DNA of 64,000 nt from an uncultured Gammaproteobacteria bacterium (GTDB lineage Bacteria > Patescibacteriota > Patescibacteriia > 2-01-FULL-39-33), in the NCBI GenBank assembly GCA_964558935.1, contig CAZLFP010000001.1, positions 5,299-69,298 of the forward strand, written 5' to 3'. Position numbers and translations under genes: made by a program. The notes beneath the pieces are model-generated. The model did no database searches. It had not been told where the DNA came from and saw nothing but the letters and a program-made list of their open reading frames with translations. Every line of letters begins with the position of its first letter. Position 1 is the stretch's first letter. Below are positions 5,973-26,705 of the stretch, piece after piece.

Positions 5973-7008
5973 GCCAGAGACTGCCAACTGGACTTGGTAT
6001 TTAATAGCTGCCTGCATTGTCTTAGGTATAGTTGGCAGCTTTTTAATGATTTACGTTTGGTTTTACCAGGAAATCAGTAATATTCGTTTTCAGCACATAG
6101 ATACCAGTCAGACCGCACGCAAATTGGATGGAGTGGAAGTTCCGGCTCATCAAGCCAATCTGTTGCCGGTTGCGATTATGATCGAAAACGAAAAAGATTC
6201 CCGTCCACCCGCCGGTTTGGTTGAAGCTAAATTAGTGTATGAAGTGCTGTCTGAGGGAGAAATAACCCGTTTTTTGGCCATCTATGATTTAACGGAAGAT
6301 TTAGATAGAATTGGGCCGGTTCGAAGTGCACGTCCATATTATATCCAGATAGCCAAAGAGTATGATGCTCTGTATGTCCATTGCGGCGGCAGTCCAACCG
6401 CTCTGGCTCAATTAAAGCATGAAGATGAGATTGTGGATTTAAACGAATATTTTGGTTTTAATTCCGGCTATTTTTGGCGAGATAAGGGGAAGCTAGCTCC
6501 CCATAATTTATACACTTCAACGCAACTGCTTCAGTCTGCCAAGGATCATTATCGTTTGACAGATGATGTTTCAGATTTTACTTCTTGGCTGTATAAGTCA
6601 AAACCGGCTCAAACTCAACAGCCGGAACAGAGGATTGTCATTCCATATTCGCAAAGCAGTACTTACCAAGTAACCTGGCAATACCAACCTGAGGTTAATC
6701 TTTACCAAAGATGGCAAGACAACCGTCAGCATACAGATGAGTTGGGCCAAGGCGTAGCAGCAGATAATGTGGTTATTCTATTTGCTCAGACTCAGGTAAT
6801 TGACGAAGTGGGTAGAAGAAAGATTGATCTGGTCGGCAGTGGTAGAGTTCTAGTGTTTAGAGATGGTCAGGTTATTGAAGGTACCTGGCAAAAGTTGGAA
6901 GCTTGGCACAGAACCACTTTTTTTGACAGCAACCAACAGGAGATAGTCTTAAACCAAGGACAAACATGGATTCAGATAGTGCCTCAGGAGTTAGTTGTGA
7001 CGTATTGA
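5908..7008 (+). CDS. DUF3048 (YerB-like) domain protein, membrane-anchored
   Basis: PVAIMIENEKDSRPPAGLVEAKLVYEVLSEGEITRFLAIYD matches the DUF3048 core, preceded by an N-terminal TM. The track ORF starts at 5806 and overlaps rplY; ATG 5908 is my choice of start, and the true start is uncertain. Confidence 0.6.
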   Translation: MTKTKKIKHKIQKLIQSQKKTKPETANWTWYLIAACIVLGIVGSFLMIYVWFYQEISNIRFQHIDTSQTARKLDGVEVPAHQANLLPVAIMIENEKDSRPPAGLVEAKLVYEVLSEGEITRFLAIYDLTEDLDRIGPVRSARPYYIQIAKEYDALYVHCGGSPTALAQLKHEDEIVDLNEYFGFNSGYFWRDKGKLAPHNLYTSTQLLQSAKDHYRLTDDVSDFTSWLYKSKPAQTQQPEQRIVIPYSQSSTYQVTWQYQPEVNLYQRWQDNRQHTDELGQGVAADNVVILFAQTQVIDEVGRRKIDLVGSGRVLVFRDGQVIEGTWQKLEAWHRTTFFDSNQQEIVLNQGQTWIQIVPQELVVTY

Positions 7009-7033
7009 CAATAATTATTGTTTTACATATAAT
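7005..7033 (+). promoter_or_regulatory. sigma70-like promoter
   Basis: TTGACA at 7005-7010, a 17-nt spacer, then TATAAT at 7028-7033. Confidence 0.5.
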
Positions 7034-7039
7034 CTAGGC

Positions 7040-7167
7040 AGTCGCCACTACTTGGGGAAGGGGTGACTTGACACCAGGAGACAAATTTGACTCTCCCACC
7101 ACGCCCATTATGGGCAGTCTCCGTCCCCGGGGCAAGCTCCTCCGACATTAGCTTGCCCCTCTTTTTA
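7040..7167 (+). ncRNA. candidate small RNA 1 (~125 nt) between promoter and terminator
   Basis: GC-rich, hairpin-rich transcript. It ends in the terminator GGGGCAAGCT..AGCTTGCCCC + T-run at 7129-7168. Confidence 0.35.
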
Positions 7168-7202
7168 TTGACAAAATATCTAATCTGTGTTAGTTTGTAG
7201 GT

Positions 7203-7366
7203 ACATGGCCGAAGCCGGTCTTAGTGACCGGCCTAGCGCGATGCCCCGCTATGTGCCAGAGAGTGTTGAGTCCCGGTTGCCAATCCCTGGATTCATAAAC
7301 TCCCCGTGTTAAGGGCAATAGCGGAATTTGGCTTATTGAGGTAGACTAACGTAGTCTACCTTTTTT
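7203..7366 (+). ncRNA. candidate small RNA 2 (~160 nt)
   Basis: Starts after TTGACA at 7168-7173 with a weak -10. Contains the hairpin GCCGGTC..GACCGGC and ends in the terminator GGTAGACT-AACGT-AGTCTACC + TTTTTT at 7340-7367. Confidence 0.3.
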
Positions 7367-7407
7367 GTTTAAATTTAGATAAAAAAATAGCTAATATGGA
7401 TTAACTA

Positions 7408-7436
7408 TTGACAAAATAATGAAAGTGTGTTATACT
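7408..7436 (+). promoter_or_regulatory. sigma70-like promoter
   Basis: TTGACA at 7408-7413, a 17-nt spacer, then TATACT at 7431-7436. Confidence 0.5.
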
Positions 7437-7442
7437 TGTAGT

Positions 7443-7633
7443 TATCATCTGAGAACAAGGAGAAAAAAAATGAAGTTCGCGTATGCCGGTTCAGCAACAG
7501 AGATGTAACTCTGTTGCTACATTCAGAGGGTTTTTGTCCCCGTTTGTACCCCGTCGAGATCAAACGGAGAGCCTAGAGGAAGCAGAGCCTCACCCCACAT
7601 CTTGTGACTAACAATCACAGGTGTGGGGTTTTT
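7443..7633 (+). ncRNA. candidate small RNA 3 / leader-peptide transcript (~190 nt) with a 12-codon ORF at 7470-7508
   Basis: SD AAGGAG lies 8 nt before ATG 7470 (MKFAYAGSATEM*). A 10-bp hairpin follows the stop, and the bidirectional terminator at 7593-7634 is shared with prmC. Confidence 0.35.
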
Positions 7634-8436
7634 AAAATTTTTAAAAAGCGATCTTTTCCGCTTAGGTCTTTTTCCAAGTTGCCATTAGAAAAATATTTAT
7701 TGGCTAACTTCAAAGTTTGTTTGGACAGTAGGGTGTTTATTTCTAACATCACCAGTTGAGGTGTTTTTTTTAATTCTTTAATTTGTTGAAACAGTTTTTC
7801 AAATAATTCTAAATCTCCATAGAGGGCAGACTTGGGTTCAAATTTAATTGAGCCGTGTTTTTCAGTGTTTTTTAAATAGGGGAGATTGGCTAGGATGATG
7901 TCCGGATTTGTTTTGATATTTTTAAGCAAATCTGACTGAATGAATTTTATTTTAACTGTGTTTAATTTTGAATTTTGTTTGGCCACTTTTAAGGCAGAGG
8001 CGTATTTATCTGAAGCAATTACATTGAGGTGAGGTAATAGTTTTTTTAAAGTGATGGCGATACAACCGGAACCGGTACCAATGTCTAAAACAGTGATTTG
8101 TTTTAATTTATTAGCCTTAATGTAATCCATAGCTTTATCCACCAACTCTTCTGTTTCCGGTCTGGGAATTAAGACATGTTTGTTGACTTTAAAAGTTAAG
8201 CCATAGAAGTCTTTTTGATTTAAAATGTAAGCAATGGGTTCTTGCTTATTTCTTCTGTTTAAATGTTTATCGTATCTATCTTGTTGTTGTTGGGTTAACA
8301 CATATTCCGGATGAGAATACAAAAAGCTTTTATCTTTGTTTAAAATGGAAGATAATAAAACCTCAGCATCTAAAAGGGGAGTGGGTGAGGTTTTAAGTCT
8401 TTGATTGCCTTTACTCAGATTATCTTTGATTGTCAT
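7615..8436 (-). CDS. prmC: peptide chain release factor N5-glutamine methyltransferase
   Basis: SAM-binding motif VLDIGTGSGCIAI and NLPY (NPPY-type) motif. It sits immediately downstream of prfA. Confidence 0.85.
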   Translation of the reverse strand: MTIKDNLSKGNQRLKTSPTPLLDAEVLLSSILNKDKSFLYSHPEYVLTQQQQDRYDKHLNRRNKQEPIAYILNQKDFYGLTFKVNKHVLIPRPETEELVDKAMDYIKANKLKQITVLDIGTGSGCIAITLKKLLPHLNVIASDKYASALKVAKQNSKLNTVKIKFIQSDLLKNIKTNPDIILANLPYLKNTEKHGSIKFEPKSALYGDLELFEKLFQQIKELKKTPQLVMLEINTLLSKQTLKLANKYFSNGNLEKDLSGKDRFLKILKTPHL

Positions 8437-14808: not shown

Positions 14809-16632
14809 ATGGCACAAAAATGGTTGCATAAGTTATTTAACCCTGGTCCGCGCGGTAAACTACGCTGGGCGGTTTTTGGTTTGTTAATCGTCTTTGTTTT
14901 GGCTGTCTTCTTTAATGTCATTGGCTTTGCCAATCCTGGAGCCGATTATGTTAACAGCGCATTAAAACAAGTGCCTGCTATTAGTGGTCTTAAAATCTGG
15001 CCAGCTGTCGAGACTAATCCGGTAGATAACAGTAAGGTTTTGGTATGGAAAAATTTGGCTGAGATAGATTTTAACACTTATGGCATGCCGTTTCGCCTGG
15101 GTCTAGATTTGCTGGGCGGCACTCACTTGGTTTACCAGGCTGACTTGTCCCAGGTAGATCCAATGGAACATGCGCAAGCAGTAGAAGGTGTTAGAGATGT
15201 GATTGAAAGACGAGTAAACGTGTTGGGTGTTTCCGAGCCCTTGGTTCAAACCAACAAAGTTGACAATGATTGGCGGGTGATTATTGAATTAGCTGGCGTG
15301 TATGATGTTAACCAAGCCATTGAGATGATTGGTGAAACTCCGCTGCTGGAATTTAAATTGGATACTGGCAGAACAACTCAATTGGATCCCGAACAACAAG
15401 CGCAACTGGACCAAGCCAATGCTGAGGTTAAACAGCTAGCCCAAGAGGTGTTAGAGCGGATTGTTAACGGTGAAGATATCGCCAGTTTAGCTGCTGAGTA
15501 TTCCGATGATCCGGGCAGTAAGGAAAACGGTGGATTGTATCAAGGAGTGACTCAGGGTATGTTTGTGCCGGCTTTTGATGAAGTTATTTTTAATCAATTA
15601 CAAGCCGGAGAGCTTAACCCAGACTTGGTTGAAACTCAGTTTGGTTACCATATTATTAAAAAAGAAGCGGAAAATGAGGTTGACGGTCAAAGACAAGTGG
15701 ATGTCAGACATATTTTATTGGCTGCCAAGACACCAGCTGATTTTGGATGGTCTGTTGAGCCAGAGTGGGAGAATACGGGTTTGACCGGTCAGCATCTGAA
15801 AAAAGCGACTGTCTATTTCCAGCAACAAGCCAATATTCCGCAAGTTCAATTAGAGTTTAACAACGAGGGGTCAGATTTATTTGCAGATATTACTCGCAAC
15901 AATTCTGGTAAAATGTTGGGTATTTTTTTAGACGGTTATCCAATCAGTCTGCCTAGAATCAATGAACCGATTTTATCTGGAGAAGCGGTTATTACCGGTG
16001 ATTTCAGTCCTCAGGAAGCTAAACTCTTAGCTCAAAGATTAAACGCCGGAGCTCTACCGGTGCCCATCAATCTCATTTCTCAAACCACTGTCGGTGCTAG
16101 CTTGGGTGCAGCTTCAGTTGAAAAAAGCTTAGTGTCCGGTATTTGGGGGTTGATATTGGTAGCCATCTTTATGATTATAATCTACCGTTTGCCGGGTATT
16201 ATGTCAGTTTTGGCTCTGGCTTTGTACACCGCTTTAGTCTTGTTGGTCTTTAAATTAGGCGGTGTCACCTTGACTTTGGCTGGTATTGCTGGCTTTATTT
16301 TGTCCATTGGTATGGCGGTGGATGCTAATGTTCTAATCTTCGAAAGATTGAAAGAGGAATTAAAGATTGGCCAGGATTTAACCACAGCTGTCGAACAGGG
16401 TTTTAATCGAGCATGGAGTTCCATTCGAGATTCCAATATTTCTTCCCTGATCACTTGCGGGATTTTATTTTGGTTCGGCTCCAGTATTATTAAGGGTTTT
16501 GCACTAACCTTGGGTTTGGGTATTCTGGTCTCAATGTTTTCTGCAATTGTCGTAACCAAACAATTTTTAAGATTAATTGCCAAGTGGCCGGTGAGTAAGT
16601 TTCTATGGTTGTACGGCTTGAATAAAAAATAG
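14809..16632 (+). CDS. secD: protein translocase subunit SecD with an inserted parvulin-type (PpiC) peptidyl-prolyl isomerase domain
   Basis: N-terminal TM, P1-domain motifs, then a rotamase motif (DIASLAAEYSDDPGSKENGGLYQGV...FGYHIIK), then the SecD C-terminal TM bundle. Confidence 0.8.
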   Translation: MAQKWLHKLFNPGPRGKLRWAVFGLLIVFVLAVFFNVIGFANPGADYVNSALKQVPAISGLKIWPAVETNPVDNSKVLVWKNLAEIDFNTYGMPFRLGLDLLGGTHLVYQADLSQVDPMEHAQAVEGVRDVIERRVNVLGVSEPLVQTNKVDNDWRVIIELAGVYDVNQAIEMIGETPLLEFKLDTGRTTQLDPEQQAQLDQANAEVKQLAQEVLERIVNGEDIASLAAEYSDDPGSKENGGLYQGVTQGMFVPAFDEVIFNQLQAGELNPDLVETQFGYHIIKKEAENEVDGQRQVDVRHILLAAKTPADFGWSVEPEWENTGLTGQHLKKATVYFQQQANIPQVQLEFNNEGSDLFADITRNNSGKMLGIFLDGYPISLPRINEPILSGEAVITGDFSPQEAKLLAQRLNAGALPVPINLISQTTVGASLGAASVEKSLVSGIWGLILVAIFMIIIYRLPGIMSVLALALYTALVLLVFKLGGVTLTLAGIAGFILSIGMAVDANVLIFERLKEELKIGQDLTTAVEQGFNRAWSSIRDSNISSLITCGILFWFGSSIIKGFALTLGLGILVSMFSAIVVTKQFLRLIAKWPVSKFLWLYGLNKK

Positions 16633-17879: not shown

Positions 17880-17908
17880 TTGACAAAAATAATTATTCTT
17901 GATATAAT
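17880..17908 (+). promoter_or_regulatory. sigma70-like promoter
   Basis: TTGACA at 17880-17885, a 17-nt spacer, then TATAAT at 17903-17908. The track ORF start at 17880 coincides with this -35 element. Confidence 0.5.
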
Positions 17909-17984
17909 TAAAACATCAAGTCAAGATATTGGTATTTTTTGTTTAAATTTAGACAAATATACCTCATTATTGATTACTAAAAAT

Positions 17985-19130
17985 ATGTCAATATTAGATC
18001 AGGTTAGAAAAAATCAATTTCAAGAACAATTAGCCGGTTTCAATCCTGTTGAAACCCTGGCTATTTTATTTTCTCGTTTATCTGAGAAAGAAAAAGATAT
18101 TCTGGAACGCAGATTCGGCTTATCTAGCGGAGACAGACAGACTTTAGAAGAGATTGGCGGTCAATATAACATCACTCGGGAAAGAGTTAGACAGATTGAG
18201 AATTTAAGCATCAAGAAATTGAAAGATTTAGAGGAATTGAGGGCTGAAATTTCTCAAGCTGAAAAGGTAACTGCTCAATTATTGGAGCAGTACGGAGGTG
18301 TTATGGAAGAGTTATTCTTTTTAGAGCATATCTTAAGCTATTTGGAAGATCATCCCAACAGTCAGAATGCTTTATTGTTTTTGGCTGAATATATCTTTTC
18401 TGACAACGTTAACAAAATTCACTATGACAAAGAATTTAACAATTTATGGACAGTAGGATCGGTTGATGTTGATACTCTTAAGCAAGTTATCAACCAGATG
18501 GTTAAATTGATTCAACAGCACGGCAAACCCATAAAATTGAATGATTTGTTAGCTCAGTTCAAGGAATCGGATTATTTTCAGAAGAATCGAGATAAATTCA
18601 TTACAGCCACTACTTTCTTAGACGTGACTGATGAGGATATTGACAAAATTTTGGAAAGCTACTTAAGAGCATCGCGCAAGATTAAACAAAATTTATTTGA
18701 TGAATGGGGTCTGATTACTTGGGGTAGTGTACAGCCTAAGAAAATTAATGATAAAATATATATAGTAATGAAAAAGGCGAACAAGCCTCTGCATTTTACA
18801 GAAATTGCCCAAGCGATTAATGAGACTAAATTCGACGACAAAATTGCTTACGCGCCAACCGTCCATAATGAATTAATCCTGGATGACAAGTATGTCTTAG
18901 TGGGAAGAGGTATTTATGCTTTAAAGGAGTGGGGTTACAAACCCGGCAGCGTAGCTCAAGTTTTGGAAGATTTACTCAGAGAACATGGCCCTTTATCTAA
19001 GGATGAGATCATTGAAAAAGTGTTGGAACGTAGAAATGTTAAAAGCTCAACAATCTATTTATCTTTGATGAACAACAAGAATATTAAGCGTACCAAGGAT
19101 AATAAGTACATGTTAGTGGAAGGTAAGTAA
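17985..19130 (+). CDS. sigma-70 region-4 (HTH) domain protein with ~300-aa C-terminal domain of unknown function
   Basis: ILERRFGLSSGDRQTLEEIGGQYNITRERVRQIENLSIKKL matches sigma70 region 4. Confidence 0.6.
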   Translation: MSILDQVRKNQFQEQLAGFNPVETLAILFSRLSEKEKDILERRFGLSSGDRQTLEEIGGQYNITRERVRQIENLSIKKLKDLEELRAEISQAEKVTAQLLEQYGGVMEELFFLEHILSYLEDHPNSQNALLFLAEYIFSDNVNKIHYDKEFNNLWTVGSVDVDTLKQVINQMVKLIQQHGKPIKLNDLLAQFKESDYFQKNRDKFITATTFLDVTDEDIDKILESYLRASRKIKQNLFDEWGLITWGSVQPKKINDKIYIVMKKANKPLHFTEIAQAINETKFDDKIAYAPTVHNELILDDKYVLVGRGIYALKEWGYKPGSVAQVLEDLLREHGPLSKDEIIEKVLERRNVKSSTIYLSLMNNKNIKRTKDNKYMLVEGK

Positions 19131-19191
19131 TTGGTACTTAATGGCTGCTGATCTTCGGTAGCCATTAGAGACCAATCTCAGGTGACAAATT

Positions 19192-20679
19192 ATGGGAATT
19201 GAAATATCTTTTAATTTTGAGGCCTGGCTAGCAAATTTACTGGCCTTTGGTTCTCAACCACCAACTCTCATTGCCTGGCAGCTGTTTATACAAGGCGGCT
19301 GGGTGATTTTTTTAGTTTTAATCATCTATGTTTTCTACCTTACTTGGCTGGATATGCGCCAAGGCAAGTTTGCCGGTAAATGGCAGCATGTTTTATTAGC
19401 CATAGATATTCCCAGAAACAACGAACAAACTCCTAAGGCTGTGGAAAGTGTATTTGCGGCGTTGGCTGGAACTCAATCCAGCGGTAATTTAATCGATATC
19501 TACTGGGAAGGTAAGGTTCAAGAAAGCTTTTCCTTTGAAATCGTCTCTTTAGAAGGCTATATTCAATTTTTAATTCGTACACCCAGTCATTACCGAGACT
19601 TAATCGAAGCTGCCATTTACGCCCAATATCCCGAAGCAGAAATTACAGAAGTCAATGACTACACAGCTGATTATGCCAAATTGACTTTTCCAAATCAAGA
19701 ATACAAACTTTGGGGAACTGAGTTTGTGTTGGTCAAGGATTATCCTTTTCCCATTAAAACCTATCCTGAATTTGAACATACTTTGAGTGGTAATTTTTTA
19801 GACCCCATGGCTGGTTTGTTGGAGATTATGTCACGATTTGGACCCGGTGAACAGATTTGGTTACAGTTTGTAGTCACTCCATTGAAAGCCCCGGGTTGGG
19901 ATGAAAAAGCGGTCAAAGTCTTGAAGGCCTTCAAAGGTGAAGACTATACACCTCCACCCACCTGGGAAGAAAAATACATTGTAAAGCCTGTGACCTTACT
20001 CTTATGGCCCATCACATTTATTATGAATGAGATTTTCGGCTTAGGTGGATCAGGAGCAGAAAAAAAAGAACCAGATCAATGGAAAATGTTTAAAATTTCT
20101 CCTGGTGAACGCCTGGTCTTTGAAAAAATAGAGCGTAAACTGAGCAAGCATGCTTTCAACACCAAATTTAGATTTATCTACTTAGGTAAAGCTGAGGCTT
20201 TTAGCAAACCCAAAGGAATCGGTGGTATTATTAGTGCTATTCAGCAGTACAACACCACGGATGCCAATGGTTTTAAACCGGGCGGTAAAACCAAAACCGG
20301 AGCAGATTATTTTAATGTGGCCAAGAGAACAGCTCAGCGTCAGAACGCCATTTTACGCAATTATGTCAATAGGAGTAATTACTATGGAGAAGCGCCCTCG
20401 GCCATGAAATTAAACACCGAAGAATTAGCTTCCCTTTGGCATTTTCCAACCATCTTAGTTAAAGCGCCCTCAGTGGAAATGGCCGGTTCCAGACGTGCCG
20501 TACCTCCTTCACGCCTACCATACCAAACAGCCAATCAGGCTCCGGCAGCTGCTATTGTTGAACCACCCGCTGCTACAGTGCCATCACCGGTACAGGCTCC
20601 TCAAACAGTCAATGAAACTTCTTCAGATGACACCCGTCCTTCAGAGCCGACTCCACCCCCTAACTTACCGACCGTTTAA
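19192..20679 (+). CDS. membrane protein with large cytoplasmic domain and Pro-rich C-terminal tail
   Basis: N-terminal TM (WVIFLVLIIYVFYLTWL). Immediately upstream of the HerA-like ATPase, so likely one operon. Confidence 0.5.
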   Translation: MGIEISFNFEAWLANLLAFGSQPPTLIAWQLFIQGGWVIFLVLIIYVFYLTWLDMRQGKFAGKWQHVLLAIDIPRNNEQTPKAVESVFAALAGTQSSGNLIDIYWEGKVQESFSFEIVSLEGYIQFLIRTPSHYRDLIEAAIYAQYPEAEITEVNDYTADYAKLTFPNQEYKLWGTEFVLVKDYPFPIKTYPEFEHTLSGNFLDPMAGLLEIMSRFGPGEQIWLQFVVTPLKAPGWDEKAVKVLKAFKGEDYTPPPTWEEKYIVKPVTLLLWPITFIMNEIFGLGGSGAEKKEPDQWKMFKISPGERLVFEKIERKLSKHAFNTKFRFIYLGKAEAFSKPKGIGGIISAIQQYNTTDANGFKPGGKTKTGADYFNVAKRTAQRQNAILRNYVNRSNYYGEAPSAMKLNTEELASLWHFPTILVKAPSVEMAGSRRAVPPSRLPYQTANQAPAAAIVEPPAATVPSPVQAPQTVNETSSDDTRPSEPTPPPNLPTV

Positions 20680-20696
20680 TGATATAATACATACAG

Positions 20697-22394
20697 ATGG
20701 AAGATTTACAGATCGACAAAGTAACAGGCTTTGCTGAAACCAATTTCCGCAACCAGCGGAGAGCTTTTGGCATTAAGCGAGATGACAGGCGTCGTCATAT
20801 GTATATTATTGGTAAAACCGGTATGGGTAAAACCACACTATTGGAGAATATGGTTTTAGCTGATGTTATTAACGGTGAAGGTTGTTGTTACATTGATCCT
20901 CACGGAGATACTGCGGAAAAGATTTTAAATTTCATACCCAATAACCGAGTTAACGATGTTGTTTATTTTAATCCGGCCGATGTAAATTTTCCCATCGCTT
21001 TCAATATTTTGGAAGCAGTGGAAGAAAAAGATAAGCATTTAATTGCTTCTGGCTTAGTGGGCGTTTTTAAGAAGCAGTTTGCCGACAGCTGGGGACCTAG
21101 ATTGGAGTACATTTTGCGCAATGCCATTTTGGCTTTATTGGATTATCCCGGCAGTACTTTGTTAGGCATCATGCGGATTTTAGTGGATGATAAATACCGT
21201 AAAAAAGTGGTTGAAAAGATTAAAGATCCGGTTGTAAAATCTTTTTGGACCAATGAGTATACCAAATGGAATGAAAGAACCCTGCAAGAAGTCATTTCTC
21301 CCATTCAGAATAAGGTTGGACAATTTTTGTCTAATTTCTTAATTAGGAACATTGTTGGCCAGGTGAAATCCACCGTTAACATGCGAGAGATTATAGATAA
21401 CAAGAAGATTTTAATTATGAACTTGTCCAAAGGTAGAATTGGTGAAGACACTATGCAATTACTCGGCTCCATGATGGTGACCAAGTTGTATTTAGCTGCC
21501 ATGAGCCGGGTGGATATTCTGGAAAAAGAACGACAGGATTTTTTCTTGTATGTTGATGAGTTTCAAAATTTTGCGACTGACAGTTTTGCCGACATTCTAT
21601 CTGAAGCCAGAAAGTATCGCTTGAATTTAATTATTGCTCACCAGTTTATTGAACAACTGCCTGAAAATGTGGTAGCAGCAGTTTTTGGTAATGTGGGCAC
21701 TTTGATCAACTTTAGAGTTGGAGCTTCAGATGCCGAGACCTTGGTTAAAGAATTCTCTCCCGTTTTTACAGAAGAGGATTTGGTTAATTTGCCGGCTTTC
21801 AATATTTACCTCAAATTGATGATAGATGGTGTGGCTTCAGATCCTTTTTCCGCTGCCACTTTACCACCTTTATTTGATGAAATGGTGACTAACAATTTTG
21901 AAAAAGTGATTAAAGTTTCCAGAGAAAGATATGCACATCCTAGGACGGTAGTTGAAGACAAGATTAATCGTTGGTCAGCTATGGATTTAAGTGACAAGGT
22001 TATGCAGGCAACCGGTAACAGAGGAGATGGAAAGGGTCAAGCCGGTGGTCAAATCAAGAAAAAGAAAGTGGAAGACAAAAAGAATAAGACCATTAAAATC
22101 AATTGCTCATTATGTGGCAAAGAGGATTATGTCAATTTCCAGCCGGATCCTTCCAAACCCATTTACTGTGATGATTGTTATGAGCGAGTCAGAGAGAATC
22201 GACGAACCAAAAAAGATGATCGGAATGTTAATTTGGATCTAATTGAAAAGTCTGCTCAAAAAAAAGTTCAGAGTATTAAATTGGCAGCAGCTGTCAAACA
22301 AACACCGGTCAATTTCAAACCCACTCAACAACCCAAAAGAAGTAAACAAGCTCCGGTAAAAATAGATGAAGGTCAAGTTGTTAAAATGGATTAA
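20697..22394 (+). CDS. HerA/FtsK-superfamily (DUF87-type) P-loop ATPase with C-terminal C4 zinc ribbon and basic tail
   Basis: Walker A IGKTGMGKTT followed by the HerA-like IDPHGD, Walker B FLYVDEFQNF, and zinc ribbon CSLCGKEDY...CDDCYE. Confidence 0.55.
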   Translation: MEDLQIDKVTGFAETNFRNQRRAFGIKRDDRRRHMYIIGKTGMGKTTLLENMVLADVINGEGCCYIDPHGDTAEKILNFIPNNRVNDVVYFNPADVNFPIAFNILEAVEEKDKHLIASGLVGVFKKQFADSWGPRLEYILRNAILALLDYPGSTLLGIMRILVDDKYRKKVVEKIKDPVVKSFWTNEYTKWNERTLQEVISPIQNKVGQFLSNFLIRNIVGQVKSTVNMREIIDNKKILIMNLSKGRIGEDTMQLLGSMMVTKLYLAAMSRVDILEKERQDFFLYVDEFQNFATDSFADILSEARKYRLNLIIAHQFIEQLPENVVAAVFGNVGTLINFRVGASDAETLVKEFSPVFTEEDLVNLPAFNIYLKLMIDGVASDPFSAATLPPLFDEMVTNNFEKVIKVSRERYAHPRTVVEDKINRWSAMDLSDKVMQATGNRGDGKGQAGGQIKKKKVEDKKNKTIKINCSLCGKEDYVNFQPDPSKPIYCDDCYERVRENRRTKKDDRNVNLDLIEKSAQKKVQSIKLAAAVKQTPVNFKPTQQPKRSKQAPVKIDEGQVVKMD

Positions 22395-22395
22395 G

Positions 22396-22418
22396 ACCCG
22401 CCTGAAGGGCGGGTTTTG
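22396..22418 (+). terminator. intrinsic terminator
   Basis: Stem ACCCGCC / GGCGGGT followed by TTTT. Confidence 0.55.
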
Positions 22419-22456
22419 TAATTGAAGAAAAAAATTAGAAGTGGTATAGTTGAAGT

Positions 22457-22969
22457 ATGCTTGAAATGATTATTTCAACTTTTTATTTATGTCTACCAGC
22501 TTATGTAGCCAATATGCTACCGGCCGTATGTTCGAGGTGGCATTGCTTTAGGTTTTTGGGCAAGCCGGTTCACGAGCGAGCATTCGGAGATCATAAGACT
22601 TGGCGAGGCCTGGTGGTCGGTACTATCGGGGGTATAATTGTAGCCGGTCTTCAGAGTTTAATTACAACCGGTTATGAAATTATAGATTATAATCAAACAT
22701 GGTGGCTATTTGGTTTCTTGGCTGGTTTAGGCGCAGTTCTAGGAGACTTAACTAAGAGTTATTTTAAGCGACGAATTGGCTTTAAACCCGGTGAACCTTG
22801 GCTGTTTTTTGATCAAGTGGATTACCTGGTGGGTTTTTTTTGCTTTACGTCCTTCATTGTGTATCCGACTTGGCAGTTAGTGGCCATCGGTTTGATTCTG
22901 AGCTTAATTTTACATCCTTTGGTTAATCTTGTAGCTTATTATTTAAAAATAAAAGCCGTGTGGTGGTAG
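22457..22969 (+). CDS. CDP-archaeol synthase (CarS/DUF46) family membrane protein
   Basis: Motifs GDHKTWRG and GDLTKSYFKRRIGFKPGE match the CarS/CdsA-like family. About 5 TMs. Confidence 0.55.
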   Translation: MLEMIISTFYLCLPAYVANMLPAVCSRWHCFRFLGKPVHERAFGDHKTWRGLVVGTIGGIIVAGLQSLITTGYEIIDYNQTWWLFGFLAGLGAVLGDLTKSYFKRRIGFKPGEPWLFFDQVDYLVGFFCFTSFIVYPTWQLVAIGLILSLILHPLVNLVAYYLKIKAVWW

Positions 22970-22970
22970 T

Positions 22971-23858
22971 ATGGCCAAAAAAACAGCTTTAATCATCTAT
23001 AATCCGACTGCCGGATTGGACTCTAAATCACAAGTGGATGTTTTAATTGATCAAGAGCTTGCCAAGTTGGGTTTTGAGACGGATTGGTTTATTTTAGACC
23101 AGCACTTTGAGAAGAATATTCAGACCTATGATCTATTGCAAGTTAAATTAGTCGTGGCGGTTGGAGGAGATGGGACAGTGAAAGTAGCCGCTCGTTTAAT
23201 TCTGGATCAGGCTTTAGACGTACCCTTGGCCATTCTGCCCTTTGGCTCAGCCAATGTGGTAGCAGCGGAAATGGGTATTCCTTTCAAGCTAAAAGCGGCT
23301 TTAAAGGTATTGGCTCAATATCAGAAAACAAAAATTGATGTTGGTATAATTAACAACCGTTGGTACTTCTTGGTTGGTTTTTCTTTGGGTTATGTTTCGC
23401 AAATTGTGACCGGTACCACCATTGGACTTAAAAAACGCATGGGTTTTATTGGCTATATATTAAGTTTGTTTTTTAACAAATTCAAGATCCGTAAGTATAA
23501 ATTTCGGATTAGTAACGGTAAAAAAACATGGTGGTTACGAGGCAATAGTCTGGTGGTTTTCAACATGGTTAATTATTATGGGCTTAAACCCAAAAAAATT
23601 ATCAGTCCGACTGACGGTTTGCTAAATTTGTACGTCCTAACCAATAAAACATATTTGGAAATGATCAAGGCCTTTATCTATAGCTTGATCTTCAGTCGAG
23701 TTAAAAAACTAATCTATGACTTTGACAGTCGATATTTCAAGATCGATTTAAGATTTAAAACCAAAACCTGTCAGTTGGACGGAGATTATCTGGAATTGCC
23801 TAAAAGTTTAGAGGTTGTGGTTTTGCCAAAGAAATTAACAGTTATCAGTAATTTATGA
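22971..23858 (+). CDS. diacylglycerol/lipid kinase catalytic-domain protein (YegS/DagK family)
   Basis: DAGK_cat motif VVAVGGDGTV. Confidence 0.65.
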   Translation: MAKKTALIIYNPTAGLDSKSQVDVLIDQELAKLGFETDWFILDQHFEKNIQTYDLLQVKLVVAVGGDGTVKVAARLILDQALDVPLAILPFGSANVVAAEMGIPFKLKAALKVLAQYQKTKIDVGIINNRWYFLVGFSLGYVSQIVTGTTIGLKKRMGFIGYILSLFFNKFKIRKYKFRISNGKKTWWLRGNSLVVFNMVNYYGLKPKKIISPTDGLLNLYVLTNKTYLEMIKAFIYSLIFSRVKKLIYDFDSRYFKIDLRFKTKTCQLDGDYLELPKSLEVVVLPKKLTVISNL

Positions 23859-24947: not shown

Positions 24948-26705
24948 ATGACTTCCAAAGAATTAAGACAAAAATATTTAAACTTTTTTGAAAAAAACGG
25001 ACACGCTGTTATTGCCGGTGCTTCTTTGTTGCCGGAAAACGATCCGACCGTTTTGTTCAATACTGCCGGCATGCAGCCCTTGGTCCCGTATCTTTTGGGT
25101 GAAAAACATCCGCAAGGAACCAGATTGGCAGATGTACAGAAGTGCATTCGGACCGGGGATATTGATGAAGTCGGGGACGGCTGGCATCTGACTTTTTTCC
25201 AAATGTTGGGTAATTGGTCTTTGGGCGATTACAACAAGCAGGAAGCCATTACTTTAAGTTTTAAGTTTTTAACTCAGGAATTGATGATTCCCTTAGATAA
25301 ACTGGCTTTCACTTGTTTTGAAGGTGAAGAGTCCAATAATATTCCCAAAGATGAGGAAGCTGCTCAGGTTTGGCAATCTTTAGGTGTTTCTCCGCTCAGA
25401 ATTAAGTTTTTGGGACGAGAAGACAATTGGTGGGGTCCGGCTGGACAAACCGGTCCGTGTGGTCCGGATACGGAAATGTTCTATTGGGCGTCGGATGAAC
25501 AAGCTCCGCATGAATTTGATCCACAAGACAAGAGGTGGGTTGAAATCTGGAATGATGTATTTATGCAGTACAACAAAACCAAAGAAGGTAAGTATGAAGT
25601 TTTAGAGCAGCAGAATGTGGATACCGGTATGGGTTTGGAAAGAGTAGTGGCGATTTTAAAAGGACATCAAGCTGTGTATGCAATTGAGCCTTTTATTACG
25701 ATTATTAACCAGATATGTGCTTTGTTTGATGCTTCACCTGAAATTTTAGGTCCTGACCAGGAAAAAGCAGTTAGAATTATTGCCGATCATTTAAGAGCTG
25801 CCACCTTTATCTTAGCCGAAGGTGTAGAACCGTCTAATGTGGATCAGGGATATGTTTTAAGGAAGTTGATTAGACGAGCGATTAGATATGGTAATCAGTT
25901 GGGAATTAAAGAATCTTTTACTCATAAAATAGCTGAAGTGGTAATTGCGGAAATGGGTGGCTTTTACTCTGAACTGCGATCTCAAAGAGACTATATTATA
26001 GACCAATTAAACAAGGAGGAAGATAAGTTTGGTAAGACCTTGGAAAAAGGTTTGTCTCAATTTGATAAAATGTCAGCGGAAGATATTTCCGGTGCTCAAG
26101 CTTTTAAGCTGTTCGCCACCTATGGTTTTCCTTTGGAAATGACCAAGGATTTGGCGCGGGAAAAGGGGATTGGAGTGGATGAAGAGGCTTTTAATCTTGA
26201 ATTTAAGAAGCATCAAGAGACTTCCAGACAGGGAGCGGAAAAGAAATTTAAGGGTGGTTTGGCGGATAACAGTGATTTATCTGCTAAAATGCACACGGCC
26301 ACTCATCTGATGCTGGCAGCTTTAAGGCAGGTACTGGGAGATCATGTTTACCAAAAAGGTTCAAATATTACGCCCGACAGAATACGTTTCGATTTTTCCC
26401 ATCCGGATAAATTAACGGATGAACAAAAGCAGAAAGTGGAAGAATTGGTTAACGAACAGATAGAGAAAAAGTTACCAATTGAAATGCAGGAGATGACTTT
26501 GGAAGAAGCAAAGAACAAAGGGGCGATGGGTATTTTTGAACATAAATATGGAGATAAAGTTAAAGTTTACAAAATAGGAGATTTTTCCATGGAAATTTGC
26601 GGTGGTCCGCATGCGGTCAATACCGGCGATTTGGGGCATTTTATGATTAAGAAGGAAGAATCTTCCAGTTCCGGGGTAAGGAGAATCAAAGCGATCTTGG
26701 AATAA
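24948..26705 (+). CDS. alaS: alanine--tRNA ligase, short form lacking the C-Ala domain
   Basis: Catalytic core (FNTAGMQP, GMGLERV) and editing-domain motifs HTATHLM and CGGPHAV are present, but the protein is only 585 aa. Confidence 0.8.
   Translation: MTSKELRQKYLNFFEKNGHAVIAGASLLPENDPTVLFNTAGMQPLVPYLLGEKHPQGTRLADVQKCIRTGDIDEVGDGWHLTFFQMLGNWSLGDYNKQEAITLSFKFLTQELMIPLDKLAFTCFEGEESNNIPKDEEAAQVWQSLGVSPLRIKFLGREDNWWGPAGQTGPCGPDTEMFYWASDEQAPHEFDPQDKRWVEIWNDVFMQYNKTKEGKYEVLEQQNVDTGMGLERVVAILKGHQAVYAIEPFITIINQICALFDASPEILGPDQEKAVRIIADHLRAATFILAEGVEPSNVDQGYVLRKLIRRAIRYGNQLGIKESFTHKIAEVVIAEMGGFYSELRSQRDYIIDQLNKEEDKFGKTLEKGLSQFDKMSAEDISGAQAFKLFATYGFPLEMTKDLAREKGIGVDEEAFNLEFKKHQETSRQGAEKKFKGGLADNSDLSAKMHTATHLMLAALRQVLGDHVYQKGSNITPDRIRFDFSHPDKLTDEQKQKVEELVNEQIEKKLPIEMQEMTLEEAKNKGAMGIFEHKYGDKVKVYKIGDFSMEICGGPHAVNTGDLGHFMIKKEESSSSGVRRIKAILE

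Follow-up and report, generated by a model that had tools for sequence, protein, structure and literature searches.

A published survey counted 5,713 homologs of VirD4-type type IV coupling proteins (T4CPs) in 2,918 of 3,035 Patescibacteria genomes (96%), whereas VirB4 was found in 2,417 of the same 3,035 genomes (80%), and only 148 of the 5,713 VirD4-type homologs lie near virB4 (Quinonero-Coronel et al., PMC12102498). Relaxases are rare in these genomes, with 109 homologs in 103 of the 3,035, MOB_C as the commonest class and 39 copies near t4cp (PMC12102498). The essential type IV secretion system (T4SS) locus of S. epibionticum has no recognisable coupling protein or relaxase (Wang et al., PMC10633639). 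The same study lists SEML1_0293, a protein of 921 aa with a TrwB_AAD_bind domain from residue 402, as a member of a core, Patescibacteria-enriched family (PMC10633639, Tables S1/S2), and scored it as non-essential at all three time points (normalised reads 5817, 2940 and 1372; PMC10633639). VirD4 is required for substrate transfer, not for pilus production, in characterised systems (PMC12857230). Here we analyse two adjacent genes, A and B, in a 64-kb window of contig CAZLFP010000001.1 (the window being the whole stretch of 64,000 nucleotides), whose products correspond in sequence to the two halves of one coupling ATPase: a membrane anchor with a VirB4-like domain and a VirD4/TrwB-type motor.

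The two genes are separated by 17 nucleotides (nt).

19192-20679, plus strand: gene A, 495 aa, a predicted membrane-anchored DUF8128 protein, the putative adaptor half of a split ATPase
20697-22394, plus strand: gene B, 565 aa, a soluble VirD4/TrwB-type coupling ATPase with a C-terminal zinc ribbon

Neither is a chance open reading frame (ORF), since protein database searches returned hundreds of homologs for each, with E-values down to 0. The closest homologs of both come from metagenome-assembled genomes (MAGs) of Patescibacteria (candidate phyla radiation, CPR) classed as Falkowbacteria, Buchananbacteria or 'Patescibacteria group'. No second copy (paralog) of A or B was found within the window.

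For B, the Pfam scan gave TrwB_AAD_bind over residues 29-348 (42.8 bits against a cutoff of 20.5, E 4.1e-11) and TraG-D_C (25.4 bits against 22, E 1.4e-5), with DUF87 below its cutoff (16.6 against 23.2 bits) and no match to PF01580 (FtsK_SpoIIIE) or the FtsK gamma domain at E<=0.01. Its top NCBIfam matches were VirD4-like and TraD conjugal-transfer models, all far under their equivalog cutoffs, and TrwB and DotL were the only matches among PDB sequences. Foldseek, run on an AlphaFold2 (AF2) model of B with a predicted local distance difference test (pLDDT) of 72, ranked TrwB first (2.7e-10) with DotL and Cagβ behind it, then HerA (6e-8 and weaker) and then VirB4 (1e-4); FtsK structures were absent from the 50 listed hits. 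Profile cutoffs and fold ranking together rule out a HerA identity. The motifs of the motor and its appended domains lie as follows.

20811-20834, plus strand: Walker A motif GKTGMGKT of B (residues 39-46), aligned with GATGTGKS of TrwB
20892-20909, plus strand: IDPHGD of B (residues 66-71), aligned with VDPNGD of TrwB
21024-21398, plus strand: all-alpha domain inserted in the nucleotide-binding domain of B (residues ~110-234; the AF2 model has only helices at 110-234)
21540-21560, plus strand: Walker B motif FFLYVDE of B (residues 282-288; FFLYVDEF at 282-289)
22089-22187, plus strand: CxxC-x17-CxxC treble-clef zinc ribbon of B (residues 465-497), matched by Pfam zf_Tbcl_2 and by TIGR04272

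Residues G39, K40, G42, G44, K45, D67, P68, H69, G70 and D71 are invariant in 45 B homologs, as are L284-F292, with D287 and E288 among them, and dozens of further motor residues. The zinc ribbon passed both its models (zf_Tbcl_2, PF23477, 40.7 bits against 27, E 1.9e-10; TIGR04272, 36.3 bits against 36, E 3.3e-9); its cysteines C470, C473, C491 and C494 are invariant, the motif being present in 45 of 45 aligned homologs. The protein ends, at residue 565, in a Lys/Arg-rich tail (31 K+R against 18 D+E in the last 135 residues). No membrane segment was found in B (maximum Kyte-Doolittle 19-residue mean 1.42): the polypeptide has no N-terminal transmembrane (TM) domain, the Walker A motif begins already at residue 39, and the TM helix comes with the separate protein A. 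These profile matches and the predicted fold show B to be a VirD4/TrwB-type P-loop motor of the HerA/FtsK superfamily, not HerA, and one that is predicted to be catalytically intact. Two further observations concern this protein. Residues 327-386 (window 21675-21854) hold many invariant residues, yet their pLDDT is below 50; the segment may be an inter-subunit or A-binding surface that is invisible to monomer prediction. The best PADLOC match of B is mad8 of MADS (E 1.3e-18), stronger than any HerA defence profile, and this match to a T4CP-type protein suggests that mad8 is itself a T4CP-like ATPase; the MADS preprint gives no description of mad8 function.

The sequence-only reading of this stretch had recognised a 565-aa P-loop ATPase directly downstream of A, with Walker A, IDPHGD and Walker B motifs, a C-terminal CxxC ribbon and a Lys/Arg tail, all of which are present. 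Its description of the ATPase as HerA/FtsK-like holds for the superfamily; HerA/DUF87 is too loose a label, given that TrwB_AAD_bind and TraG-D_C pass their cutoffs and DUF87 fails. The IDPHGD motif had been likened to the HerA/DUF87 signature, a comparison that finds no support here: the motif aligns with VDPNGD of TrwB, and the HerA folds rank after the T4CPs. The statement that no canonical VirD4 arrangement could be recognised was wrong for the ATPase core of B, and right in that B lacks the N-terminal membrane domain of a T4CP, which A would supply in trans. That reading had also described A as a 495-aa protein with one N-terminal TM segment and a Pro-rich tail, and the analysis of A bears this out.

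DUF8128 (PF26449) is annotated on a database protein 100% identical to A (P0001) and on nearly all of its listed homologs; the assignment is a precomputed annotation, the Pfam copy that we scanned directly having held no DUF8128 model. Scans of A against the Pfam, NCBIfam and PADLOC libraries gave zero matches, 60 A-family members run against Pfam at E<=1 gave only noise, with the VirB4 N-terminal model not among the matches, and neither A nor its profile had a meaningful match among PDB sequences. The AF2 model (pLDDT 83, predicted TM-score (pTM) 0.75) has N-terminal helices, alpha/beta domains from residue 66 to ~430 and then disorder.

19273-19350, plus strand: single TM helix of A (residues ~28-53), from hydrophobicity and an AF2 helix at 24-62
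19381-20481, plus strand: predicted cytoplasmic alpha/beta domain of A (residues 64-430), with a VirB4-like fold
20482-20676, plus strand: disordered Pro-rich tail of A (residues 431-495; pLDDT <50 over 435-480)
20503-20520, plus strand: PPSRLP in the tail of A (residues 438-443; P439, L442 and P443 invariant)
20653-20670, plus strand: PPPNLP ending the tail of A (residues 488-493; P489, N491, L492 and P493 at least 90% conserved)

The hydrophobic segment reaches a Kyte-Doolittle 19-residue mean of 2.24 at residues 31-49, and a TM-type segment is present in 54 of the 60 family members. Because the mean net charge of the family is -0.93 over the 15 aa before this helix and +1.44 over the 15 aa after it, which fits the positive-inside rule, we infer an N-out/C-in orientation that would place the large domain in the cytoplasm. 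The top Foldseek matches of the model in the PDB were eleven TrwK/VirB4 chains, 8rtb and 8rtd among the matches, with probabilities of 0.91-0.99, and VirB4 is the sole strong structural match of the cytoplasmic domain. Given that A has no P-loop and that no other P-loop protein appears among the matches, the domain probably corresponds to the N-terminal domain of VirB4, an assignment made on the predicted model. Proline makes up 23% of the C-terminal 65 residues. Some 50 Pro-rich residues run on between PPSRLP and the final PPxNLP, and a C-terminal PPxN[LIVM]P occurs in 49 of the 60 members; the family alignment has 36 invariant columns.

A tblastn search of A against plasmids and phages matched the N-terminal parts of long ATPase genes coding for 885-929 aa, namely an 885-aa 'DUF87 domain-containing protein' on Bacillus plasmids of ~25-30 kb and a 929-aa 'type IV secretory system conjugative DNA transfer family protein' of Bacillus Tsamsavirus-type phages. 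On the plasmid protein the A profile aligned with residues 53-187 (4e-14) and 262-310 and the B profile with residues 344-883 (E 6e-53) in hmmsearch, and hhalign of B with the same protein gave a probability of 99.9 (E 2e-33), with the WGPRLEY and YRxKV motifs of the all-alpha domain present in both. The phage family phrog_5156 (824 positions, function unannotated) matches A at profile positions 74-288 (6e-13) and B at 399-807 (6e-63), in the same order. A database search found PF26449 and PF01935 on one chain in Bacillaceae and Paenibacillus relatives of the Bacillus protein, and also retrieved fused DUF8128+TrwB_AAD_bind (PF10412) proteins of 765-1,124 aa, including P0328, labelled Candidatus Saccharibacteria; P0346, a Gracilibacteria protein of 740 aa, is of fused length and has no precomputed DUF8128 match. 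When A and B were concatenated, BLASTP gave one alignment across the junction, with 39% identity over 892 columns to P0334, 37% to P0328 and 34% to P0346 (~870-890 columns). The fused junction reads '...ELAxxxHLP...EPPxxLP-(about 10 aa)-xxGETNFRNQ...GKTGMGKS', and in the split form A has 'ELASLWHFP...PPSRLP', after which the N-terminus of B continues with 'FAETNFRNQ...GKTGMGKT'; as these motifs line up, the boundary between the two genes falls in the interdomain linker. The alignments show that A and B correspond, at the level of sequence, to two halves of one protein, which is a single polypeptide in Saccharibacteria, Gracilibacteria, Bacillus plasmids and Bacillus phages. Fused forms that have no zinc ribbon, too, bear basic disordered tails.

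The next gene after the fused one on the Bacillus plasmid codes for a Replic_Relax protein, and TcpC-like and TcpF (VirB4-type) genes come after it; a Replic_Relax gene is also the next one in the Bacillus phage, where ParM and a tyrosine recombinase are encoded close by. Replic_Relax (PF13814) corresponds to the MOB_C relaxase class (PMC5357655). With this neighbour on both plasmid and phage, the nearest relatives outside Patescibacteria reside in genuine relaxase-plus-coupling-protein modules. In S. epibionticum, SEML1_0293 is probably the fused ortholog of A+B, as judged from its length, domain positions and synteny, not its sequence. That genome also has SEML1_0142, a second T4CP-like protein of 1,019 aa with a 'TraM recognition domain', whose best ECOD match is the FtsK structure 2iut and which is essential in transposon sequencing (Tn-seq); a protein of this type is the probable source of the second T4CP homolog that the published survey counted per genome. 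In one locus (L084, 8001-12044, on a contig of 1.02 Mb) a TM-less fused DUF8128-T4CP gene stands directly after a ribosomal-protein operon (after L15) and is followed by an EVE-domain gene and an XerC/D-type recombinase.

The A family is present in at least 576 species-representative genomes, essentially all of them Patescibacteria of several classes (pattern scan), and an exhaustive profile search at E<=1e-3 returned 3,365 cluster representatives at 50% identity, the best 150 of which are all stand-alone proteins of 340-690 aa. Synteny was counted in the 80 best A loci, 78 with room downstream and 76 with room upstream. B lies directly 3' of A in 71 of the 78 (median gap ~20 nt), and the recurrent order is SecD-SecF-(UP)-A-B-(MnmA-AlaS), with SecDF in 48 and MnmA in 20 of the 80 loci; the adjacency to SecDF is taken as conserved gene order and not as evidence of a functional link. 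The same order is seen in dozens of species at 37-60% protein identity. The pair is thus conserved in related genomes, and the earlier description of a two-gene module was right about a functional pair, adjacent here and fused elsewhere, and too narrow in that the conserved neighbourhood is larger and includes the upstream gene UP. A few loci lack B, and there the genes next to A on the 3' side encode glycosyltransferase, DUF4012 or DUF11 proteins, or others. Four of these (L046, L067, L073 and L075) have a glycosyltransferase of family GT4, a DUF4012 protein (~800-876 aa) and a DUF11 surface-type protein in its place, and the helix-turn-helix (HTH) gene UP still precedes the A homolog. Many public MAGs titled 'uncultured Gammaproteobacteria bacterium' carry the Patescibacteria-type locus and neighbours (L010, L011, L014, L017, L018, L023 and others), and the Gammaproteobacteria labels of MAGs with the A-B locus are probably wrong.

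The window itself is core chromosome, with genes for ribosomal protein S2, elongation factor Ts, release factor 1, PrmC, FtsW, glyceraldehyde-3-phosphate dehydrogenase, SecD/SecF, MnmA, an AddA-like helicase-nuclease and six aminoacyl-tRNA synthetases (AlaS, PheS, PheT, a class II Asp/Lys/Asn-type enzyme, SerS and a Glu/Gln-type enzyme). Pfam, NCBIfam and PADLOC scans of the 64 kb found no T4SS, relaxase, integrase, phage or defence genes, and neither a relaxase nor a VirB4-containing T4SS was found in the window or in the flanks of the 80 loci. The A-B locus shows an even base composition, with no anomaly, and a scan of viral contigs with the A profile gave one short irrelevant match. A-B is a vertically inherited, chromosomal, Patescibacteria-enriched core gene pair, and neither a mobile element nor a defence island.

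The gene upstream of A and the transcription signals around the three genes are as follows.

17880-17908, plus strand: sigma-70-type promoter upstream of UP, TTGACA-17-TATAAT with an upstream TG (12/12 consensus)
17985-19130, plus strand: UP, a Sigma70_r4 + HARE-HTH DNA-binding protein of ~381 aa (Pfam Sigma70_r4 4e-14, HARE-HTH 4.5e-6)
19130-19176, plus strand: hairpin between UP and A (20 bp, -26 kcal/mol, z -5.08)
22396-22420 (about), plus strand: intrinsic terminator closing A-B, a G+C-rich hairpin ACCCGCC-UGAA-GGCGGGU with a U-run reading UUUUGU

The mechanically called ORF of UP spans 17880-19130 with a TTG start; because the perfect promoter overlaps this start, the true one is probably the ATG at 17985. 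UP stands directly 5' of A in 51 of the 76 loci with room. In a Saccharibacteria locus (L086) a 343-aa Sigma70_r4 + HARE-HTH gene (6922-7953) ends 47 nt 5' of the fused gene, and since the rest of the neighbourhood there (TopA, phosphoglycerate kinase, pyruvate kinase, MurG and FtsW) is unrelated, the linkage of UP is conserved across classes. Likewise SEML1_0294, directly upstream of SEML1_0293, is a Sigma70_r4 + HARE-HTH protein of 349 aa and is essential (PMC10633639, Table S1); it is annotated 'RpoS', with a separate RpoD at SEML1_0063 (PMC10633639), and beyond it come a hypothetical protein and then TopA, in the order seen at L086. The terminator that had been read after B folds with -18 kcal/mol (z -5.07), with 0 of 200 shuffles equally stable. 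The promoter at 17880-17908 may, by its sequence, drive UP-A-B in this genome. Relatives usually have, between UP and A, a hairpin of terminator type followed by a U-run, and 20 of 40 such spacers contain the extended -10 box TGnTAWAAT; neither a U-run nor an extended -10 box was found in this spacer of the window, so that A-B here may be expressed through read-through or RNA processing. An obligate three-gene operon UP-A-B is weakened as an explanation by the terminator and -10 box in the UP-A spacer of relatives and by the UP ortholog being essential and the ATPase not. The same difference between SEML1_0294 and SEML1_0293 points to a role of UP that is independent of the motor: UP is linked to the A-B module and probably has a function of its own. 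It has sigma region 4 only, together with an RNA polymerase delta-like HTH, and may be a phylum-specific RNA polymerase-associated factor.

We propose, as a reading on which we are evenly divided, that A-B is a split T4CP acting as a membrane-tethered nucleic-acid coupling motor. A and B would very probably assemble, with a hexamer of B tethered by A at the inner side of the membrane; the C-terminal PPxNLP of A plausibly docks where the covalent linker enters B, as a proposed tether. The substrate would, a little more likely than not, be nucleic acid, probably DNA, going by the family and the composition of B. It would engage the all-alpha domain, the zinc ribbon and the basic tail, and ATP hydrolysis would move it or hand it over. 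More tentatively, and with a probability that we set a little under one half, the conduit would be a conjugation-derived T4SS encoded elsewhere in these genomes that itself lacks a coupling protein. Such a conduit is favoured by a T4SS without a coupling protein of its own, by the VirB4-like module in A and by the dispensability of VirD4 for the pilus. A-B would then serve a substrate transfer that is dispensable in laboratory co-culture, and the essential role of the T4SS (e.g. in pilus formation or contact) would need no A-B; a non-essential coupling protein can be reconciled with an essential T4SS because VirD4 is needed for transfer and not for the pilus.

Several points weigh against the coupling-motor reading. 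The likeness of A to VirB4 is at the level of the predicted fold only, and its N-terminal assignment does not come from a residue-level alignment. P0334, P0346 and the Bacillus fused proteins have no TM helix, so that membrane anchoring is not family-wide. Binding by zinc ribbons and basic tails extends to RNA, proteins and acidic lipids, and a classical relaxase-piloted substrate is unlikely because relaxases are rare in Patescibacteria. As for the link to a T4SS, T4SS genes were not found in the 64-kb window, VirD4-type homologs are commoner than VirB4 (96% against 80%; PMC12102498), the T4SS genes are essential but SEML1_0293, which is probably the fused ortholog, is not (PMC10633639), and the authors of PMC12102498 themselves raise exaptation of the VirD4-type homologs.

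These last points lead to the rival explanation that survives best, a T4SS-independent exaptation in which the split ATPase, alone or with another channel, is a housekeeping-type membrane DNA pump, possibly for DNA uptake in transformation, for DNA export or for handling host-derived nucleic acid. The scarcity of VirD4-type homologs near virB4 (148 of 5,713) and the excess of genomes with them over those with VirB4 (PMC12102498) fit this explanation, as do the synteny with the core genes SecDF, MnmA and AlaS, not T4SS genes, the opposite essentiality of SEML1_0293 and the T4SS (PMC10633639) and the precedent of Streptomyces TraB, a T4CP acting alone that moves DNA without other T4SS subunits (PMC12857230). 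However, T4CP genes are often located away from virB4, and the comparison of 96% with 80% mixes at least two T4CP-like paralogs (SEML1_0142 and SEML1_0293) and incomplete MAGs. A, moreover, bears a VirB4-like domain, and in VirB4 itself this domain belongs to the inner-membrane complex of the T4SS (the 8rtb and 8rtd matches), and the closest relatives outside Patescibacteria sit in genuine conjugation modules. We regard T4SS-independent exaptation as unlikely, though deserving of serious attention.

An FtsK-like translocase for chromosome segregation or dimer resolution would account for the general layout, in that a membrane-anchored part, a Pro-rich linker, a motor hexamer and an HTH protein from another gene would mimic the N-terminal membrane domain, the linker, the alpha-beta motor and the DNA-reading gamma domain of FtsK. 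T4CPs and FtsK belong to one superfamily, the DNA-binding HTH gene UP is a conserved neighbour, and at L084 the XerC/D-type recombinase lies 3' of the fused gene. B, however, has no FtsK_SpoIIIE or gamma-domain match and T4CPs are its best folds, UP is essential but what is probably the fused ortholog is not, and UP is usually a separate transcription unit. That A-B substitutes for FtsK is weakened further by the separate, essential FtsK-like protein of Saccharibacteria, SEML1_0142, and TM7x has an annotated ftsK. We consider an FtsK-like role improbable.

Defence, as a HerA-type or MADS-type anti-phage module, was among the functions suggested by the sequence-only reading, which named a HerA-partnered defence module next to a DNA or substrate translocase and a conjugation-coupling-like system; the latter two lie in the right region of function space. 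For a defence role speak the mad8 match of B, the weaker matches to HerA profiles in PADLOC and a weak resemblance of the sigma region 4 of UP to MzaA. The MzaA match, however, reaches 58 bits against a cutoff of 800, DUF87 is under its own cutoff, A has no PADLOC match, the mad8 match is single and isolated, and no other mad gene and no Sir2, NurA or nuclease gene was found nearby. The family is found almost throughout the phylum by vertical descent, and it keeps its place among housekeeping genes from class to class, the opposite of patchy, island-borne defence systems; context and distribution rule out the defence reading of A-B to the point that we leave it hardly any probability. Equally negligible is a passive remnant of an integrated conjugative or mobilisable element or prophage, for although the closest non-Patescibacteria relatives stand beside a MOB_C relaxase on Bacillus plasmids and phages and 39 Patescibacteria relaxase genes are close to t4cp (PMC12102498), the window holds no detected relaxase, integrase, T4SS or phage gene and no composition anomaly, the viral-contig scan gave no relevant match, the gene order is repeated across dozens of species despite 37-60% protein identity, and the invariant motor motifs and 36 invariant columns of A indicate strong purifying selection.

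Much of the bacterial diversity that has not been cultivated belongs to Patescibacteria, which lack nucleotide, amino-acid and lipid synthesis, and how they get macromolecules from their hosts is the context that gives the split-motor model its importance. The model is concrete and testable, and a genetic handle exists in the non-essential SEML1_0293 of the transformable S. epibionticum. A coupling protein with a VirB4-type N-terminal domain is also of interest for the evolution of T4SSs. On a far more speculative view, which we hold to be improbable, the DUF8128+T4CP family would be a coupling-protein lineage that retained a VirB4-type N-terminal domain, a living intermediate between the sister ATPases of the T4SS, domesticated from a MOB_C-type conjugative element into a core mover of nucleic acid between epibiont and host. 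If this were true, the domesticated machine could, for example, import host DNA as a nucleotide source, a function that laboratory co-culture would not need.

Other features of the window lie outside the pair. SecD (14809-16632, plus strand) has a PpiC-type peptidyl-prolyl isomerase (rotamase) domain inserted at residues ~199-286, between the P1 subdomains, and this SecD-isomerase fusion is an unusual arrangement. Directly 3' of B (22457-23858, plus strand) come a CDP-archaeol synthase (CarS)-like gene, slightly below the cutoff of its model (NF003114, 143 against 148 bits), and a diacylglycerol kinase (DAGK)/YegS-type lipid kinase gene; the former is notable as a homolog of an archaeal-type lipid enzyme in a bacterium with reduced lipid synthesis. 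The alanyl-tRNA synthetase encoded at 24948-26705 (plus strand) is a short one, of the PRK01584 type and 585 aa long.

Part of this picture is already known, in that the B family is annotated, and publications treat it as a T4CP homolog whose role is uncertain, and the A family is a Pfam DUF; no papers were found under the name 'DUF8128'. In the literature searched we did not find a description of A and B as halves of one protein, of the VirB4-like fold of A and the membrane anchor that it supplies, of the MOB_C-associated coupling proteins of Bacillus plasmids and phages as outside relatives, or of the Sigma70_r4/HARE-HTH gene as a conserved neighbour. A-B is not a new type of system, as its ATPase half is already annotated as a T4SS coupling-protein homolog.

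Among named systems, MADS is an 8-gene operon (MADS preprint) and differs in its setting: the neighbours here are SecDF, the HTH protein, the CarS-like and DAGK-like genes and MnmA, and a multi-gene mad operon with its methyltransferase was not found. EccE of the mycobacterial ESX (type VII) system scored much weaker than VirB4 in comparison with A, has no sequence similarity to it and belongs to a different system. B shares its superfamily with HerA (DUF87), whose structures are second-tier folds (E 6e-8 and weaker), but there is no HAS-barrel evidence in B, no NurA, Sir2 or nuclease partner is present, T4CP models score better throughout, and the neighbours of B are a DUF8128 protein and a CarS-like protein. 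In contrast to VirB4 (TrwK), to whose models A has no detected sequence similarity, A has a TM helix of its own and partners a VirD4-type motor. TrsD is a stand-alone VirB4-N-terminal-like protein of pGO1 and of Patescibacteria T4SS loci (PMC12102498); A resembles it as an N-terminal-type domain encoded by a separate gene beside its ATPase, a comparison made by the description in PMC12102498 only.

The T4CPs TrwB (R388), DotL and Cagβ share with B the Walker A and B motifs, DP(H/N)GD, the inserted all-alpha domain and the TraG-D_C region. Unlike them, B has no N-terminal TM domain of its own, ends in a zinc ribbon with a basic tail and is partnered by a membrane protein that resembles VirB4 (its N-terminal domain); both genes belong to the core chromosome, and neither relaxase nor T4SS genes lie near them. 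The fused DUF8128+DUF87/T4CP ATPases (phrog_5156) differ in being one polypeptide, most of them without TM helix and zinc ribbon, and those of Bacillus are mobile and not core, standing beside a MOB_C relaxase with TcpC/TcpF-type genes or in phages. They nevertheless have the same two modules as A-B, in the same order and with shared junction motifs, and their Patescibacteria forms are 34-39% identical to concatenated A+B.

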